A model generated the notes under the pieces. That model was not told where the DNA came from. It saw nothing but the letters and a program-made list of their open reading frames with translations, and made no database searches. The position numbers and the translations under genes were made by a program. A stretch of 64,000 bases of DNA, from the NCBI GenBank assembly GCA_040220235.1, contig JAVJTO010000051.1. One strand, 5' to 3'. This document shows, in pieces, positions 1,262 through 9,098 of the stretch. Source of the DNA: Coleofasciculus sp. B1-GNL1-01 (GTDB lineage Bacteria; Cyanobacteriota; Cyanobacteriia; Cyanobacteriales; Coleofasciculaceae). Every line of letters begins with the position of its first letter. Position 1 is the first letter of the stretch.

Positions 1262-4048
1262 ATGGACTTAATCTTGTGTCACACGATTAGCGACTTTGAT
1301 GCCCTCGGAGCGGCTGTTGGGCTGACGCGCCTGAAAACAGGAGCGAAACTTGTCCTAACAGGCGGCGCTCACCCGGCGGTTCGGGATTTTTTGGCACTGC
1401 ATCGGGATGAGTATGCTTTGATTGAACGACGTTCGGTTAAAGTAGATCAAATTCATTCCCTCGTCGTGGTGGATACCCAAAAGCGCGATCGCTTAGGGAA
1501 AGCCGCTCAATGGTTCGACTTGCCTCATCTTACTGCCATTGAACTTTACGACCATCACGGCGACACTCATTGTGATATTCCTGCTACATTCCGACAGGTT
1601 GAACCTGTAGGTGCCACCACAACGCTCATCGTCGAGCAATTACAACAAACCTCAATCCAATTAACCACCGCCGAAGCCACGGTGATGGCACTCGGTATCC
1701 ATGTGGATACAGGTTCCTTAACCTTTGACCAAACCACCCCACGGGATGCCATGGCTCTGGCTTGGGTAATGGCACAAGGGGCAAATATCCGCCAGATTGC
1801 TGACTATGTTGATCCAGGACTTTCGCCCCAGTTGCAACAACTGCTCACCACAGCCCTAGAGCAGTTAAAATCTGAAAATTATCAAGGTAATACCCTGTCC
1901 TGGGTGTTCCTGAAAACTCAAGACTATGTACCGGGACTCTCAAGTTTAGCCTCACGATTAGTTGATCTGACTGAAAGCGACGCCCTATTGCTGGCGGCAG
2001 AATATGGGGAAGATGGGGGAGATGGGGGAGATGGGGGAGATGGGGGAGATGGGGAAGATGGGGGAGATGGGGGAGAATCCAACCATCAACAATCAAAATC
2101 ATCCCGTCTCACGATAATAGGGCGATCGCGGATTCCTGGCACGAATTTAAATGCGCTCTTACAACCCCTAGGTGGAGGGGGGCATTCTCAAGCCGCCGCC
2201 GTCACCCTACGCCATGAAAATCCCCCAGAGGTTTTGCCCCAACTCGTTGATCAATTCAAGGAGCAAATTCCCCAACCCCTAAGCGCCCTGGAGTTAATGT
2301 CCTCCCCGGTGCGAACTATTCGCCCCGATACCACCGTTGGCGAAGCACAGCGGATTTTGCTGCGTTATGGGCATTCTGGACTGTCTGTGGTTGATGAACA
2401 TGACCAGTTAATTGGGATTATTTCACGGCGAGATATTGATCTGGCGCTGCATCACGGTTTAGGTCATGCTCCAGTTAAAGGGTATATGACCCGAAACCTG
2501 AAAACCATTACCCCCCAAACCTCACTGCCAGAAATTGAGTCGCTGATGGTGACTTATGATATTGGACGCTTACCCGTGTTAGAGAATGGGCAGTTAGTCG
2601 GGATTGTCACTCGTACTGATGTCCTGCGACAAGTACGCCAAGATCAAGAGCGCTGGGGAGAGACTTGCCCCATCCCGATGACCTATCCCTCATCCCGCCT
2701 GTTAAATATGCGGGAACGCCTTGCTCCTGCCCTGTGGCAATTGCTCACTCAAGCCGCCCAGGAAGCCCAGGAACGGGGTTGGCATCTCTATTTAGTGGGG
2801 GGAGCCGTTCGTGACGTATTGCTGGCGGATGAGAGCCAACCTTTGCTCCTAGAAGACGTAGATTTGGTGGTTGATGGGTTTCATCGGGCGGCTGATGTGG
2901 GCGCAGGAGTAACCTTGGCGAAAGCCTTGCGAGAACGGTATCCGAATGCTCGCTTAGAGGTTCATGGGGCGTTTCAAACGGCAGCATTACTGTGGCATAA
3001 TGACCCGGTGTTGGATTCCTTGTGGATTGATATTGCCACGGCTCGGACTGAGTTTTATCCCTATCCAGCGGCGAATCCGGAAGTGGAAGCCAGTTCTATT
3101 CGCCAGGATCTCTATCGGCGAGATTTTACGATTAACGCTATGGCAGCCCGACTGACGGGGAGGCGAGGTGAGGCGTTGCCCCTACTGGATTTTTTTGGTG
3201 GGATGTTGGATTTGCGATCGCGTCAAATTCGCGTCTTGCATGCCAATAGTTTTATCGAAGATCCCACTCGCATTTATCGAGCCGTTCGGTTTGCCGTGCG
3301 CTTAGGCTTTGAACTGGAACCCCAAACCCAAGACTATATCCAGTATGCGTTAGAGAGTGGCGTTTATGAGCGATCGCTAGGAGCAAAGACGCGAGCGCCT
3401 GCCCTAGAAACCCGCTTGAAAGCCGAATTAAAGTACATCCTAGAAGCCCCCTATTGGCAACGGGCATTCCAACTCATCGGCTCACTCGGAGCATTACGCT
3501 GTCTTCATCCCAGCTTAAAGCTTGACCCATTGTTATGGTGGCGGGTTCGTCTAATTGACCGTTGGTTACGACGCTTTGACCCTGACCAAACCCTCAAACA
3601 TTGGCAGATGCGTCTAGAGGTGTTAATTGCCTATCTAGACCCTCAAGAACGCGGCAAAGTGGCAGAAAATTTACAACTGCCTATTGATAGTATTGAGCGA
3701 CTGCAGCATCTCGGACAAGCCCAAACTGAGGTGGTAGAGTCTCTACCCCAATGTCAGCGTCCCAGTGAAGTCGTTTGGCTGCTACGTCAGTATAAATTAC
3801 CCACATTGGTTTTGATTGCCGTACACAGTTCTAGAGCAATTCGGCGCAAGTTGTGGCACTATTTCACAAACTTGGCAATCGTGCAAGTTCCTCTTAATGG
3901 CAATGATCTCAAAGGTTTGGGGTATAAGCCAGGACCACACTATAAGGAGATATTAGATGCCCTGTTAGCCGCAACTTTGGATGGCGTGATTCAGAATGAG
4001 GCAGATGCCAAAGCATTTTTAGAGCAGCATTATCCTTGCTCTAAGTGA
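1262..4048 (+). CDS. tRNA nucleotidyltransferase (A-adding type) with N-terminal DHH/DHHA1 and CBS domains
   Basis: DHH motifs ([24 protein letters not shown]), CBS pair, class II NTase motifs [42 protein letters not shown]. Confidence 0.9.
2004..2076 (+). repeat. In-frame 9-mer array (GATGGGGGA)n inside the nucleotidyltransferase gene
   Basis: Encodes [21 protein letters not shown]; same repeat family as the intergenic arrays. Confidence 0.9.
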
Positions 4049-4208: not shown

Positions 4209-5384
4209 TTATGGGAATGCTTTTCGTAAAATATTGTAGGAACCGATGACATCAGATTGAACGAGAACCCCCTGCTCTGTACGATATAAACCTCGTTTAA
4301 TTCTTTTTCCACTAAAAACGGGTTTTTCAGTAGAGACGCGCCATGGCGCGTCTCTACCATAAACGGGGAGAGGATCTAAATTCAAAAAATTAGAAGCTGA
4401 GGTATAGGATTCTTCTTGAAGAATCACCGATATTCCTAGTAATTGACATTTGTAAATAATCATGTCAATTAATCGAGCATGAGGAACGGTCACAAATTTT
4501 TGATTGTTGACTTTTCCTAAGTTCACTTCTTGTTTCCAACCGTCATTTTTCCCAATAACTAAAGTCGTGATATTTTGGTCAACTAAAAGATTGACTAAAT
4601 AACGACTAGCTCGATGAAGATAATTATCTATCTTCTGATTACGGCAACGGGTTAAACGACGGATTCTTTGGGAACTTTTGTGATTGCCTTTTAACAGAGA
4701 TTGTAACTTCGCTCGACGCTGGTTATAAAATTGATTTAGGCTTTTTAACGGTCTGCCATTAATCAACAAAGGAGTAAAATCCGGTTGATTTGAAGTTACA
4801 GCCATTAAATTATCTATACCTAAATCTATTGCTGCTATCTTTTCATTGGGGGTTAATAACTGTTCTTTTTCTTCATAAATTACCTCGATTACATAACAAT
4901 CACATTTCGGAATGATTCTTACTTCTGCTATACGGTTAGCCACTTGACTGGTCAACTCAATATTAGTTCCTGATAGCTTGACTAATCCTTTTCTTCTGGC
5001 TACTTGACTTATCGCTTGAATTGTATAAATTAGCAGATTTCGTCCTTTTTTGGTATCTTTATAGCCAGGGATTTTCGGTCTGCCTATAAATTTATCGGGA
5101 TGCTTTTTAAATTCGGAGGTCGCGGCGAAAAATGATTTCCAGTTCCGATCTAATCCTCTTAAAACTTGCTGTGATACTTTAGCTGGTAAGGCTTTATATT
5201 GTTCGGTCTCTTTCATTAAGGAAGCCATCTGATTATAAGTCAAATACCCATGACCATAAATCCAGTTTTGACGGATGAGATAATTGGCTGAGTTGTAAAG
5301 ATTTTTAGACTGCCAAGACAAGCGATCTATCGACCTCCAAAAACGATGCCCCTTTTTAATTATATGTCTTTGAGCTAGTCGCAT
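4209..5384 (-). CDS. tnpB: RNA-guided endonuclease TnpB (IS607-associated type); C-terminal tail lost by frameshift
   Basis: Start MRLAQRHIIK at 5384; SKNLYNSANY, AIDLGIDNL, LVIGKNDGWKQ, QEESYTS, SDVIGSYNILRK; the usual tail FNRYGIERCVVHPRRINLSK continues in another frame to 4145. Confidence 0.88.
   Translation of the reverse strand: MRLAQRHIIKKGHRFWRSIDRLSWQSKNLYNSANYLIRQNWIYGHGYLTYNQMASLMKETEQYKALPAKVSQQVLRGLDRNWKSFFAATSEFKKHPDKFIGRPKIPGYKDTKKGRNLLIYTIQAISQVARRKGLVKLSGTNIELTSQVANRIAEVRIIPKCDCYVIEVIYEEKEQLLTPNEKIAAIDLGIDNLMAVTSNQPDFTPLLINGRPLKSLNQFYNQRRAKLQSLLKGNHKSSQRIRRLTRCRNQKIDNYLHRASRYLVNLLVDQNITTLVIGKNDGWKQEVNLGKVNNQKFVTVPHARLIDMIIYKCQLLGISVILQEESYTSASNFLNLDPLPVYGRDAPWRVSTEKPVFSGKRIKRGLYRTEQGVLVQSDVIGSYNILRKAFP
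4330..4357. repeat. Perfect 28-bp REP-like palindrome GTAGAGACGCGCCATGGCGCGTCTCTAC inside tnpB
   Basis: Perfect inverted repeat; related copies at 20149-20176 and 35681-35708, partial copies near 34972 and 37317. Confidence 0.9.
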
Positions 5385-5545
5385 TATTGTCCGTGAGATT
5401 TTAATTCGGCTATAATCTTTTCGGTTTTTCGTTTCGACCTTCTTAAATTGATGACCTGTCAAATTTCCTTGTTTCCACCACATAAAGGCAGTTCGATAAC
5501 TGATTCCTGCTTTTTTGGTATAGATAGTCGGAGAGAGAGTTTCAT
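5384..5545 (-). pseudogene. tnpA: IS607 TnpA serine recombinase remnant (frameshifts plus large internal deletion)
   Basis: N-terminus MKLS..DY.KKAGISYRTAFMWWKQGNLTGHQ (MerR-like HTH) joined directly to C-terminus LRRSKRKTEKIIAELKSHGQ*. Confidence 0.8.
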
Positions 5546-5600
5546 GTATATATTACCCAACATGACTACATCTGACTATATTCTTATTGAAACTTTACAA

Positions 5601-5858
5601 TACCGTCGTAATCAGGTGCAGGAATACATCGTGTGGCAATTTTATGACCAACGCCTCGATTGGTTTAGATTACGAGATGGTGACTATGTTTCCCTACAAC
5701 CGGATGATGAAGGGATTGTCAGGAGTGAGGTTTTTCCGGGATTGTGGTTAGCTGTACCCGCCTTGTTAGCAGGGGATTTGGCTCAAGTGCTGTCAGTATT
5801 GCAGGAGGGATTGGCGACACCGGAACATGGGGCATTTGTTGAGCAGTTAAGGGAGTAA
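5601..5858 (+). pseudogene. Uma2/DUF820 family endonuclease, C-terminal fragment
   Basis: YRRNQVQEYIVWQFYDQRLDWFRL...IVRSEVFPGLWL...LQEGLATPEH is the typical cyanobacterial Uma2 C-half; the 5' half is replaced by the IS end. Confidence 0.8.
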
Positions 5859-7645
5859 TAACTGAAAGGATGTCCTCGGTATTTAAGCCGATCATGATGG
5901 GAGTCAGCATTAGCATTAGAAGGAATGTCTAGATCTTTTAGGTGTCGCTTAACACGACGAAGTTGACGTTCCCGTCCTCGATCCAATTGTTTGAGTTGGG
6001 AACAAACGATACGCCGCCCTTTAAGTTCTTTAAAACCAACACACCAACAAAATACTGAAGGTGCGTCTGGTGGAGTTCCGATTTGCTTGCGTCCAACGGA
6101 CATTGAAATAAGTCTCTGATGCAGTCTATAAATAATTTGACCTTTGCTCCTCCGCGTACCAGGAGAATATGATTTTTCAGAAGAATTTGTTGATTTCTGC
6201 TTAGGACAAACGTACTTGAGAATATTGTCAGCTTGTTCAACTTGTTTTTTGAGTTCTTTTTCAACTGAAGAAGGGCGGATTCTAATTAATCCATCATAGC
6301 GGAGTTGGTATCCGAGAAAGGAAACCCAAGGAACAGCAGCCGCATTGTCTTTAGCTGCCCATTTGTAGGGAGACTTAGATTTTTTATCCCAAAAGCCCTT
6401 GTTGTACTTCTCAACCTGCCAGGGATCATGAGGCAGTAAGTTAAGTGAACTCAGTGCTGTTCTATATTGCTCAAAAGCACTATGACACTTTGCTTTATCC
6501 GGATGAACAATAATCATGTCATCACAGTACCTAGCATAAAATAAATCTGGATCGGGTTTTTCTGGATCTTGGAGTACCTGCCGATCTGCTTGATCGAGCA
6601 GTAAGTTAACAACTAAGCATGAAAGCGCACTTCCTTGGGGTATACCGATATATTCATTTGATGGATTATTATAGAATTGTTTTAATTCATCTTCGGGCCA
6701 TCCTGTATAACCTTCAGGATCTTTTTCTTTAAACCATTTATCAGCTTCATTTTGTGCATACCCTGAAAAGGAATATGATTCTAAATATGCATCAAAAATT
6801 TCTCTGGCTCGTTTATCGACTGCTGGTTCACCTGAATTTATCCGCTGTATTGCTAAATTTAGAGTATCTTTAGCTTTTTGATGGTGTACGCAATCAAAGA
6901 ACTTCTGAATATCACATTCAGCAACCCAAAGAATTTGATCATCTCTCTGTTCTCTATACTCGATAATAGCCTTAAAAGCCTCATGATGATTCTTGCCACT
7001 TCTAAAGGCATAGGAACAATCCAAAAAAAATTTGTCAAATATTTTACAAAAATAGCGAGCGCATAATTTATCTATAATTCGATCAACTATATTTTCGTAT
7101 ACAGCAATTATACGATAACTATGCTCATCAGATTTTGGAATTAGTTTTATACAAGGCTTACTCATGGAGTAGGGAGCAAACATTACCCAAAGTAGGCATC
7201 TTGCAAGGGTTTCAGACCCCTTTGAAAGAGCTAATATCCAAAAATTTGATGCTCCCATTTGATATGTAAATCCTAGAGCAGCACTCTTGATTTCGTCAAT
7301 TTTTTTATTAAGATTTTTTAACCATATTTCATTTTTATACTTAGGATTATTACGCACCCGCAACACAGTTTTACTAAGAGCTAACTTGTTGATTTCTATA
7401 CTGCTCTTATTCTTGCGTTCGTGACGATTCGGACGATACCACTGCTTTCGCGGTGGGAATAAATCATGAATTATTTTGTCTGTTTTTGAAAGCTGGTCAA
7501 GCCGATCAGGGTGTATGGGTGGAGGTGCATCTTTTGATATGTTGTAGAGAAATTGTTTGTCATGTCGCTTCTTAGCAAGTGTCACTCGCAGGGTACACAA
7601 CTCACGAATGATATTCTCATCAGAGAAGCATTTTTCTAGGTGCAT
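5783..7645 (-). CDS. Stand-alone reverse transcriptase (group II intron-like/unknown group), about 620 aa from the probable ATG at 7645
   Basis: RT motifs IPK..YRIIA, DRIIDK, CSYAFRSGKNHHEA, WVAECDIQKFFDCVHH, GIPQGSALS, YARYCDDMII, VSFLGY; long N- and C-terminal extensions. Confidence 0.9.
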   Translation of the reverse strand: MHLEKCFSDENIIRELCTLRVTLAKKRHDKQFLYNISKDAPPPIHPDRLDQLSKTDKIIHDLFPPRKQWYRPNRHERKNKSSIEINKLALSKTVLRVRNNPKYKNEIWLKNLNKKIDEIKSAALGFTYQMGASNFWILALSKGSETLARCLLWVMFAPYSMSKPCIKLIPKSDEHSYRIIAVYENIVDRIIDKLCARYFCKIFDKFFLDCSYAFRSGKNHHEAFKAIIEYREQRDDQILWVAECDIQKFFDCVHHQKAKDTLNLAIQRINSGEPAVDKRAREIFDAYLESYSFSGYAQNEADKWFKEKDPEGYTGWPEDELKQFYNNPSNEYIGIPQGSALSCLVVNLLLDQADRQVLQDPEKPDPDLFYARYCDDMIIVHPDKAKCHSAFEQYRTALSSLNLLPHDPWQVEKYNKGFWDKKSKSPYKWAAKDNAAAVPWVSFLGYQLRYDGLIRIRPSSVEKELKKQVEQADNILKYVCPKQKSTNSSEKSYSPGTRRSKGQIIYRLHQRLISMSVGRKQIGTPPDAPSVFCWCVGFKELKGRRIVCSQLKQLDRGRERQLRRVKRHLKDLDIPSNANADSHHDRLKYRGHPFSYYSLNCSTNAPCSGVANPSCNTDST

Positions 7646-7680
7646 CCTGGACTCTACATTTATTTGATGGGAAAAAGAGG

Positions 7681-7862
7681 CGGACGAGTCTAGGGGTGGT
7701 GTGAGCCTCTTTTTTAAGAAGCCCATTCTACTAGAATACACAATCGTGACTTTACAAACCGGACGAATAGTGTACCTAAGTCGGTCTCAAAACTGACTGG
7801 TGCTTCGATTTCACCTTGTAAGAAGGCTACCTCCGCCCATCAGACACCCCGGACTCGTCCGG
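7681..7862 (-). ncRNA. Putative structured RNA upstream of the RT
   Basis: 5' arm CGGACGAGTCCGGGGTG (7861-7845) pairs with 3' arm CACCCCTAGACTCGTCCG (7698-7681) and encloses several hairpins; starts right after a predicted -10 box. Confidence 0.6.
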
Positions 7863-7866
7863 TACT

Positions 7867-7895
7867 AGTCTATTCAAAATATTCTTGGGTTTCAA
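7867..7895 (-). promoter_or_regulatory. Predicted sigma70-type promoter for the ncRNA-RT cassette
   Basis: TTGAAA (7895-7890)-N17-TAGACT (7872-7867); predicted start about 7861 coincides with the 5' stem arm. Confidence 0.55.
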
Positions 7896-7929
7896 CTCAA
7901 CAGTCAAAGTGAGGAAGTTAAAGTTTTGT

Positions 7930-7994
7930 GTAGGGGCGGGTTTCACCATTATCGTGTCTTGCCTCACAACAGATATAACTAAACCCGCCCCAAC
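7930..7994. repeat. REP-like element GTAGGGGCGGGTTT...AAACCCGCCC (probable fbaB terminator)
   Basis: Inverted arms around a variable spacer; family members at 11322, 31759, 36168, 42961, 43042, 48960 and 58004. Confidence 0.85.
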
Positions 7995-8015
7995 CAAGAT
8001 TGATTTAACTCAGGA

Positions 8016-9098
8016 TTAAGCAATGGTCACGTCGCCGGACAAGTAAACATCCTGAATCGTGTGGAACAGCTTAACACCTTCCTCGAAGGGACGCTGAAAT
8101 GTCTTGCGTCCAGAAATCAGTCCACAACCGCCAGCCCGTTTATTAATCACAGCAGTGCGAACAGCTTGGGCAAAATCATTTTTCCCCGATGAACCGCCAG
8201 AATTAATCAAACCTGCACGACCCGCATAACAGTTGAGAACTTGATAACGAGTCAAATCAATGGGGTGATCACTGGTGAGTTCCGTATAAACGCGATCATC
8301 TGTTCTGCCATATTTTTCGCCCGTAGCTTTAGCCACCGCACCATAGCCATTATTGCATTCAGGCTGCTTCTGCTTAATAATATCGGCTTCAATGGTAACA
8401 CCCAGATGATTGGCTTGACCCGTGAGGTCAGCCGAAAGATGATAATCTTTATCTTGCTTAAAAACGCTATGGCGTAAATAGCACCACAAGATTGTTGCCA
8501 TCCCTAACTCATGAGCGCGAGCAAATGCTTTACTCACTTCCTCGATTTGGCGGCTCGATTCCTCAGACCCAAAGTAAATCGTCGCCCCCACAGCCACAGC
8601 GCCTAAGTTCCAGGCTTGCTCGACATTGGCGAACATTAGCTGATCATATCGATTCGGATACGTCAGCGTTTCATTGTGGTTCAGTTTAGCAATGAAGGGG
8701 ATACGGTGGGCATACTTGCGAGACACCATGCCCAAAACCCCTAACGTCGTAGCAACCGCATTACAACCGCCTTCCAAGGCAAGTTTGACAATATTTTCCG
8801 GGTCAAAGTAGACCGGGTTCGGGGCAAAAGAGGCGGCGGCGGAATGTTCAATCCCTTGGTCTACGGGTAGGATAGACAGATAACCCGTATTAGCAAGGCG
8901 TCCGCTGGAGTAGATCTGCTGAAGGCTACGCAACACTGGGGCAGGGCGATCGCTATTGGCAAAAATCCGTTCCACCCAGTCTGGACTCGGTAAATGTAAC
9001 AGACGTTTATCCACTTTGGCGTTGTACGTCAATAGATTGTCTGCCTCTTCACCTAACCAAGATTCTATCGATTGAGGTGCTGTTAAAGTAGCCGTCAT
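8016..9098 (-). CDS. fbaB: Class I fructose-bisphosphate aldolase (DhnA/FbaB type)
   Basis: [40 protein letters not shown]. Confidence 0.93.

Follow-up and report, generated by a model that had tools for sequence, protein, structure and literature searches.

UG39 (formerly UG28b) is a group of Class 2 UG/Abi reverse transcriptases (RTs) that was split from UG28/DRT9 and, in the accessible text of the classification, tied to a gene encoding VirE and PriCT-2 (PMC9226505). The same text predicts non-coding RNAs (ncRNAs) only for UG2, UG8, UG27 and UG28. The available sections of a second survey give a co-occurrence of UG39 with VirE_N of 45-46%, so that this partner is not obligatory (Sharifi and Ye 2021, PMC8934634). 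For Class 2 RTs, the available portions of four reports describe a rule by which a short single-stranded template, located between two stem-loops, is copied repeatedly from a protein primer (PMC12483538, PMC12489045, 10.1101/2025.10.16.682844, 10.64898/2026.06.29.735271). The locus compared here with these systems lies in a stretch of 64,000 nucleotides (nt) of the cyanobacterium Coleofasciculus sp. B1-GNL1-01 (contig JAVJTO010000051.1, assembly GCA_040220235.1), hereafter the window, and associates a UG39 RT gene with a predicted structured RNA directly upstream. That RNA, with covariation among homologues, and a primase-free two-part form are the new elements of a known RT family. Neither was found in print, subscription journals and bioRxiv supplements lying outside the search; UG39 or UG28b appeared only in PMC9226505 and PMC8934634. 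No functional test of UG39 was found in the literature searched, and the accessible part of the Minerva preprint, which covers UG27, makes no mention of UG3x groups.

Among the described systems, DRT9 associates a UG28 RT with a 188-nt ncRNA. In the available text of its two reports, a universally conserved U4 template lies close to where the enclosing stem has its 3' strand, and two priming tyrosines occupy the extreme C-terminus (PMC12483538, PMC12489045). In the E. coli DRT9 locus used for comparison, obtained from an accession in the supplement of PMC12483538, the U4 is indeed found a few bases inside that 3' strand. DRT10 comprises a UG17 RT, an ncRNA and SLATT (10.1101/2025.10.16.682844, 10.64898/2026.06.29.735271, accessible parts), and DRT2 a UG2 RT and an ncRNA, with its neo gene.

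The minus strand encodes the RT of the window in one uninterrupted frame, 652 amino acids (aa) long from GTG 7741 or 620 aa from ATG 7645, with its stop at 5783; homologue N-termini start at the position of ATG 7645. A preliminary description of the window had announced an RT of ~620 aa with the motifs SYAFR, DIQKFFD, PQG, YCDD and FLGY, and every one of them is found in the 620-aa translation. The main features of the gene are:

5783..7645, minus strand: UG39 reverse transcriptase, 620 aa (open reading frame (ORF), PADLOC profile, homologue search, AlphaFold model, tree)
6518..6529, minus strand: catalytic YCDD (translation)
5858..5875, minus strand: C-terminal GxPxSY motif (conservation: S595 98%, Y596 100%)

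The protein matches the PADLOC model RT_UG39 with 563.6 bits (E 1.3e-169, profile positions 2-535 of 541), the next-best model lying at E 2.8e-26, and is almost certainly a member of UG39. The module had been thought possibly new; its RT family is in fact already catalogued, under the name UG39 given in 2022. A word-indexed search returned 445 homologous matches among 5624 candidates, and an RT profile 597 clusters at E<=1e-30 among 1.84 billion. The alignment assembles the query and 103 of the 120 listed homologues, short ones being excluded; [YF]CDD is present in 234 of the 240 homologous proteins compared. A FastTree was built from 58 rows: 24 UG39, DRT9, five YADD RTs of this genome and 28 short viral YCDD RTs, which are presumably RTs of diversity-generating retroelements (DGRs). 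UG39 forms one branch of 24 rows with a support of 99-100, apart from the short viral YCDD RTs, while DRT9 sits on a long branch with no resolved position. Elsewhere, the genome encodes five YADD RTs of full length and, in addition, an RT that is split (G000 C161, C34, C45, C83 (two), C46).

The AlphaFold model of the window RT, with a predicted local distance difference test (pLDDT) of 91, has DRT9 as its top Foldseek match (E 7e-16). In VIA-align, DRT9 also gives the longest superposition, 427 residues with a Z of 21.5 and a root-mean-square deviation of 4.0. The N- and C-terminal extensions had been considered unexplained. As judged from the alignment and the model, they are features of the UG39 family, because homologues share them and the RT model superposes on DRT9; the exception is a 30-aa insert private to the window copy. 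The two proteins share 21% identity, and UG39 displays YCDD or FCDD where DRT9 has YADD. Within the family, S595 and Y596 of the GxPxSY motif are the sole near-invariant C-terminal hydroxyls; they are candidate priming sites, or else the start of a structural helix. They do not superpose on the DRT9 priming tyrosines, the overlay stopping at model residue 607, equivalent to DRT9 482, and the terminal tyrosine loop of DRT9 has no clear UG39 counterpart.

Memberships of other described groups were tried and rejected. For a group II intron ORF, the NCBIfam maturase model scores 92.9 bits against a cut-off of 300, and in the tree, a placement that the preliminary description had proposed, the RT stands apart from the five YADD (group II-like) RTs of its genome. 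An Rfam scan of 5400-8200 yielded no significant family, group II intron domains included, but one chance match at E 2.4. The retron model reaches 27.1 bits against a cut-off of 235, the translation is devoid of VTG and the cassette of an effector ORF. DRT2/UG2 (NCBIfam, 63 bits against a cut-off of 390) was likewise dismissed, as were DRT9/UG28 (PADLOC Drt9, 83.9 bits versus 563.6 on UG39) and DRT10/UG17 (PADLOC RT_UG17, 53.5 bits); the score on Drt3a is far under its NCBIfam cut-off. No second genomic copy of the cassette was found, apart from copies of a 90-base-pair (bp) insert described below. The stated absence of intron, retron and cas context is supported, and a DGR context seems to be lacking as well. 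No DRT9 match was found in 154 genomes around G714.

Upstream of the RT, the following elements are predicted:

7681..7861, minus strand: predicted non-coding RNA, 181 nt, putative RT partner (fold, plus layout and covariation in homologues)
7845..7861, minus strand: 5' arm of the closing stem P1 (pair probability 0.81-1.0)
7793..7843, minus strand: first hairpin, SL2 (fold; covariation of the corresponding hairpin within clades A and D and between L009 and L177)
7756..7787, minus strand: P3 stem-loop, with the A-N3-A/R-G-U loop motif common to stand-alone clades (fold; motif defined post hoc)
7725..7755, minus strand: weakly paired, lineage-variable 3' segment, candidate template (low pair probabilities, divergence between two close relatives, DRT9/DRT10 analogy)
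7703..7724, minus strand: last hairpin (pair probability 0.82-1.0)
7681..7698, minus strand: 3' arm of the closing stem P1 (fold)
7672..7678, minus strand: U-tract following the closing stem, which may act as a leaky terminator and release the RNA (family count)
7867..7895, minus strand: sigma70-like promoter candidate, TTGAAA-N17-TAGACT (9/12 matches)

The segment 7861-7681, which corresponds to a self-complementary region of ~180 nt noticed at the outset, folds as a multibranch structure closed by 16 pairs (pair probability 0.81-1.0). None of 200 shuffles is equally stable (z = -4.09), its ends having been picked on the stem; the untrimmed 261-nt upstream stretch yields z = -1.37. The promoter signalled in the preliminary description is present and well placed, ending 6 nt 5' of the stem, but such sites occur at chance level (7 versus 6.2 expected).

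That description had suggested looking for the RNA upstream of homologues. Loci were taken from scans of genomes (8), metagenomes (best 80 of 446) and viruses (1 full-length of 59). After removal of 5 duplicates, fragments and loci with less than 260 nt upstream, 73 loci remained, including the window; later tests used a clade-sorted set of 73, differing by a few loci, with 22 boundaries placed by hand. A closing stem was scored as an ungapped stem ending at most 70 nt from the RT start with a score of at least 10, a test written after viewing the sequences. Such a stem occurs in 52 of the 73 upstream regions, as compared to 7/73 coding and 5/61 downstream controls, and outscores all 10 shuffles in 44/73 loci. 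An earlier, gapped stem search had separated poorly (mean 36.9 versus 31.8 shuffled; 35/74 above 4 shuffles). The RNAs are 122-229 nt long (median 173), and 64/73 fold with z < -2, a figure inflated by the choice of ends. By inspection, they share a common layout: P1, hairpin SL2, stem-loop P3, variable hairpins, a last hairpin and P1 again.

Compensatory changes were observed within clades. In clade A (9 of 12 sequences aligned), both sides have changed at 10 of 23 pairs, 90.8% of cells are paired as compared to 38-59% when the structure is slid, and 0/500 shuffles reach the covariation score, statistics that kinship of the sequences can inflate. Both-side changes affect 9/33 pairs in clade A2 (8/10 aligned) and all 8 SL2 pairs in clade D (11/17 aligned). 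In clade B (13/14 aligned) only the last hairpin emerged, with 4 of its 6 pairs changed on both sides; sequence-only alignments of clades B and D give a consensus for one hairpin each only. L009, the nearest relative of the window with 52% protein identity, and L177 belong to the cyanobacterial clade; their RNAs exhibit three compensated pairs in P1/SL2 and diverged 3' thirds. The P3 loop motif, a post hoc one, is found in 29 of 44 stand-alone loci versus 13.8 expected, and the window P3 bears this motif of clades A, A2 and B. Comparison of these loci makes it very likely that the upstream RNA is the partner of the RT. The layout resembles that of DRT2 and DRT9, as had been proposed. As in DRT9, in the accessible text of its reports, two components would suffice, with the RNA directly upstream of an RT whose extensions superpose and no effector gene needed; the sequence of the UG39 RNA, conversely, is clade-specific.

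A U-tract is located just 3' of P1 in 49/73 loci (13.2 expected), to which AT-rich leaders may contribute. In clade C, 8 of 12 loci possess TAnnTTTG, presumably a Bacteroidota promoter element, within 20 nt 5' of the RNA (0.12 expected). The two elements, before and behind P1, may be read as signs of a discrete transcript. Among public sequencing runs, only DNA relatives were found and no RNA dataset with the locus. A stem and U-tract directly 5' of a start codon also have the form of an attenuator, and the structure might be a cis-acting leader limiting a toxic RT that works without template RNA, in keeping with its poorly conserved 3' third. This is improbable: a multibranch of 120-230 nt with conserved inner stems exceeds the needs of an attenuator, and the characterised Class 2 RTs use an ncRNA template, as far as the available text of the reports goes (10.1101/2025.10.16.682844, 10.64898/2026.06.29.735271).

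The published partner gene recurs in part of the family. Clades C and D together make up a single starred branch on the UG39 tree, and in 27 of their 29 loci a PrimPol-like BT4734/PriCT-2 primase gene lies next to the RNA. This gene is found in 0/44 loci of clades W, A, A2 and B, window included, 31 of which have at least 1.2 kb upstream. The window locus has no VirE_N + PriCT-2 neighbour, and PF08800 is absent from the genome (completeness 100%). UG39, described without an ncRNA and as primase-associated, thus also comprises 44 loci, the window and 43 others, without the primase. As to orientation, the primase gene is divergent from the RNA-RT unit in clade C (L021, L023, L026, L037, L055, L061, L062, L074, L079, L081) and co-oriented with it in clade D, where it ends at the 5' arm of the RNA.

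Second-nearest genes match PADLOC defence models in 29/93 cases (E<=1e-8), including type I, II and III restriction, BREX, DISARM, AbiE, AbiL, AbiJ and PD-Lambda-1; the nearest genes include TIR, Schlafen, MmeI, HsdM and OLD. The primase partner of clades C and D could also denote an RT-RNA pair with a role other than defence, such as serving a mobile element in priming or repair. The same direction is indicated by integrase or resolvase genes beside L021, L034 and L089, by one full-length copy among 59 viral loci and by one plasmid record. Such a role is, however, hardly probable in view of the 44 loci devoid of the primase, the lack of a BT4734-like gene in this genome and the frequency of restriction, BREX, DISARM and Abi neighbours. 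The neighbourhoods rather suggest that UG39 is likely a defence system.

The nature of the DNA product is approached through the variable part of the RNA. In clade B, 12/14 RNAs contain a 5-nt tandem between two hairpins, made of two copies of CGAUU or of the 4-nt core of this unit. At an equal distance, L020 harbors another 5-nt tandem; L040 has a 6-nt tandem. The clade B tandem and its replacement in L020 lead to the prediction of a 5-nt repeat product. A similar A-B-A' repeat pattern has been reported for DRT10 (10.1101/2025.10.16.682844, accessible text), which further shares with UG39 a closed multibranch RNA, a conserved scaffold and a poorly conserved putative template (same source and 10.64898/2026.06.29.735271). 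DRT10 nevertheless belongs to another RT group; no SLATT match was found among 105 nearest genes of UG39 loci, and the A-B-A' pattern is weak family-wide and not evident in the window RNA. The DRT9-type conserved U4 is not a feature of UG39 (11/73 RNAs versus 13.1 expected), and none occurs at the equivalent place in the window RNA. There the template is only bracketed, the candidates being 7755-7725 or the four bases before P1.

The RT and RNA might instead be partners in copying an internal hairpin once into a short product, as in retrons or UG27, or in making a long DRT2-like concatemer. The terminal inverted repeat closing the RNA indeed resembles retron a1/a2 arms, the family-wide repeat signal is weak, and UG27, likewise an RT of Class 2, uses RNA hairpins as templates for DNA of 50-100 nt according to the accessible part of its report (10.64898/2026.09.22.753630). 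Such products are nonetheless unlikely in light of the retron score and missing VTG given above, and no effector gene is common across clades in the 44 stand-alone loci. DRT2 is likewise a stand-alone RT with an upstream ncRNA, but the UG39 RNA is shorter, the DRT2 model scores far below its cut-off, and antisense stop-free frames show no excess (21/73 versus 22.3 expected, in a single-pass test that does not model the concatemer junction). A short-repeat DNA product would, on the analogies drawn here, be slightly favored.

The following mechanism is proposed. Transcripts from the promoter candidate would begin with ~180 nt that fold into a structured RNA, with a long stem closing it. Most of them would end at the U-tract that follows this stem, and read-through would yield the RT. 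The RT would bind the conserved 5' scaffold formed by P1, SL2 and P3 and, by analogy with DRT9, DRT10 and DRT3, copy a short single-stranded segment of the variable 3' third over and over, probably priming from a protein hydroxyl, to produce tandem-repeat single-stranded DNA. Upon phage infection, this DNA would accumulate and the infected cell would be stopped. The stand-alone form would need no effector gene, as is the case for DRT9, while the Bacteroidota-type form would add the primase-polymerase. That UG39 is, as the full model has it, a two-component RT-ncRNA anti-phage system making short-repeat DNA seems on balance somewhat probable.

Several observations weigh against this model. Concerning defence, the accessible text of the classification found the prediction for UG39 inconclusive (Mestre et al. 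2022, PMC9226505), some of the PADLOC neighbour matches are generic kinases or ATPases and the count of 29/93 has no random-gene baseline, and the sole defence neighbour of the window copy is a Uma2 fragment. Concerning the RT, ranking by Z in VIA-align places DGR and group II RTs level with DRT9 over fewer residues, a DGR RT tying for the top across 318. The DRT9 tyrosines Y496/Y498 fall outside the superposed range, and UG39 C-terminal tails have lengths between 4 and 75 aa, whereas in DRT10 the terminal position is strict. Concerning the RNA, no close relative usable for counting the window RNA's own covariation was found, and related UG39 loci are not independent of each other. Because the clade A covariance model recovered only its own 9 sequences, and neither the window RNA nor other clades, RNA homology across clades rests on the layout and the short post hoc motif, which shows no excess in primase clades C/D (5/29 versus 4.5 expected). 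Finally, micro-repeats are weakly enriched family-wide (35 versus 23.6, located 45-60 nt from the 3' end) and driven by clade B, and the candidate template segment of the window RNA contains no 4-nt repeat.

The state and history of the window copy were analyzed separately. UG39 is rare in cyanobacteria (2/401, 3/401, 3/321 and 1/401 genomes in four samples that overlap, this genome being counted in three of them). Three genomes of the same genus retain remnants of the cassette: only the last RT codons, joined to the far flank (G699), internal pieces with 90-96% identity (G494), or a few bases (G700). The run X3 displays another deletion, 6608-7810. Because these relatives bear separate deletions, the cassette appears to have been at this site before the strains split and to have been lost several times, which would fit a costly gene. 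In another genome (G168, L149/L154), a UG39 RT is reduced to its C-terminal half, with unrelated genes upstream. The cassette had been described as AT-rich and free of the HIP1 octamer: its GC content is indeed low (39.1% versus 45.5% for the genome), and HIP1 is absent from its 2016 bp, an absence that says little with 1.6 expected (0.81 per kb). The preliminary description had seen a horizontally acquired, RNA-templated defence module, a reading partly supported by the patchy distribution and by the defence genes often found beside homologues.

The insert private to this copy is the following:

7172..7261, no strand assigned: decayed miniature inverted-repeat element of ~90 bp, in-frame, 30 aa (absent from 103/103 homologues)

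This element has 15-18 genomic copies, with 11-bp terminal inverted repeats and direct repeats of ~8 bp flanking most of them. It is shared by G494, and no related description of its inverted-repeat motif was found in the literature. The insert, unique among 104 sequences, raises the question of whether the family reading holds while the window copy itself is decaying. Of 97 well-conserved positions, 94 are retained in the RT, the 3 departures exceeding the 0-2 of the 13 closest homologues, its 24-aa tail is read through the end of Uma2, and relatives have deleted the cassette. Decay is however doubtful: the frame is intact, all catalytic and invariant residues are retained, the median homologue has 4 departures, and tails of at least 24 aa occur in 40/178 homologues. 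Moreover, 14 of the 26 listed differences between the window and X3 are synonymous and those at invariant columns are all silent, for the 40 of 145 rows shown. Judging from its sequence, this RT copy is probably active.

The gene beyond the 3' end of the RT is the following:

5448..5858, plus strand: Uma2 endonuclease gene reduced to a 3' fragment (covering Pfam positions 116-171 of 172), whose end overlaps the last 24 codons of the RT

An IS605-type TnpB gene at 4209-5483, further copies of which exist in this genome and in related ones, abuts the truncated Uma2. The cassette had been placed between a Uma2 gene damaged by an insertion sequence and the fbaB terminator; the Uma2 fragment beside TnpB agrees with this, but the supposed terminator is a dispersed REP-like palindrome at 7925-7995, beyond the promoter candidate, with a 13-base core present in 735 copies genome-wide. 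Short tandem repeats are found at 870-1260 and ~2000-2090, one tract encoding a Gly/Asp/Glu-rich stretch in a 928-aa ORF (1262-4048). Elsewhere in the family, several clade B loci (L032, L040, L045, L056) have a DUF2130 gene downstream of the RT, and in L039 (3971-6985) the two are fused; DUF2130 is a possible accessory effector. DUF5131 genes are located downstream of the unrelated UG39 copies L010 and L020, and an ORF near L177 is similar by eye.

It is possible, as a tentative view of the whole family, that UG39 is an ncRNA-templated anti-phage system of several hundred lineages, in which one RNA scaffold would carry a swapped template domain and specify lineage-specific repeat DNA, such as a 5-nt unit in clade B, alone in most clades and with a second-strand primase-polymerase in one clade. 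If so, UG39 with its lineage-specific template would link DRT9, which makes a fixed homopolymer and has no effector, to DRT10, which makes a variable repeat and has one, and might rely on a distinct priming site. All Class 2 defence RTs worked out to date (DRT2, DRT3, DRT9, DRT10 and UG27) have revealed an unexpected DNA product made from a neighbouring RNA. The RNA boundaries, the primase-free two-part form and the product predicted for one clade bring UG39 within reach of a direct test on a construct of 2 kb. Should an RT that has no effector prove to copy a variable template, this would bear on how the infected cell is stopped by the repeat DNA itself.

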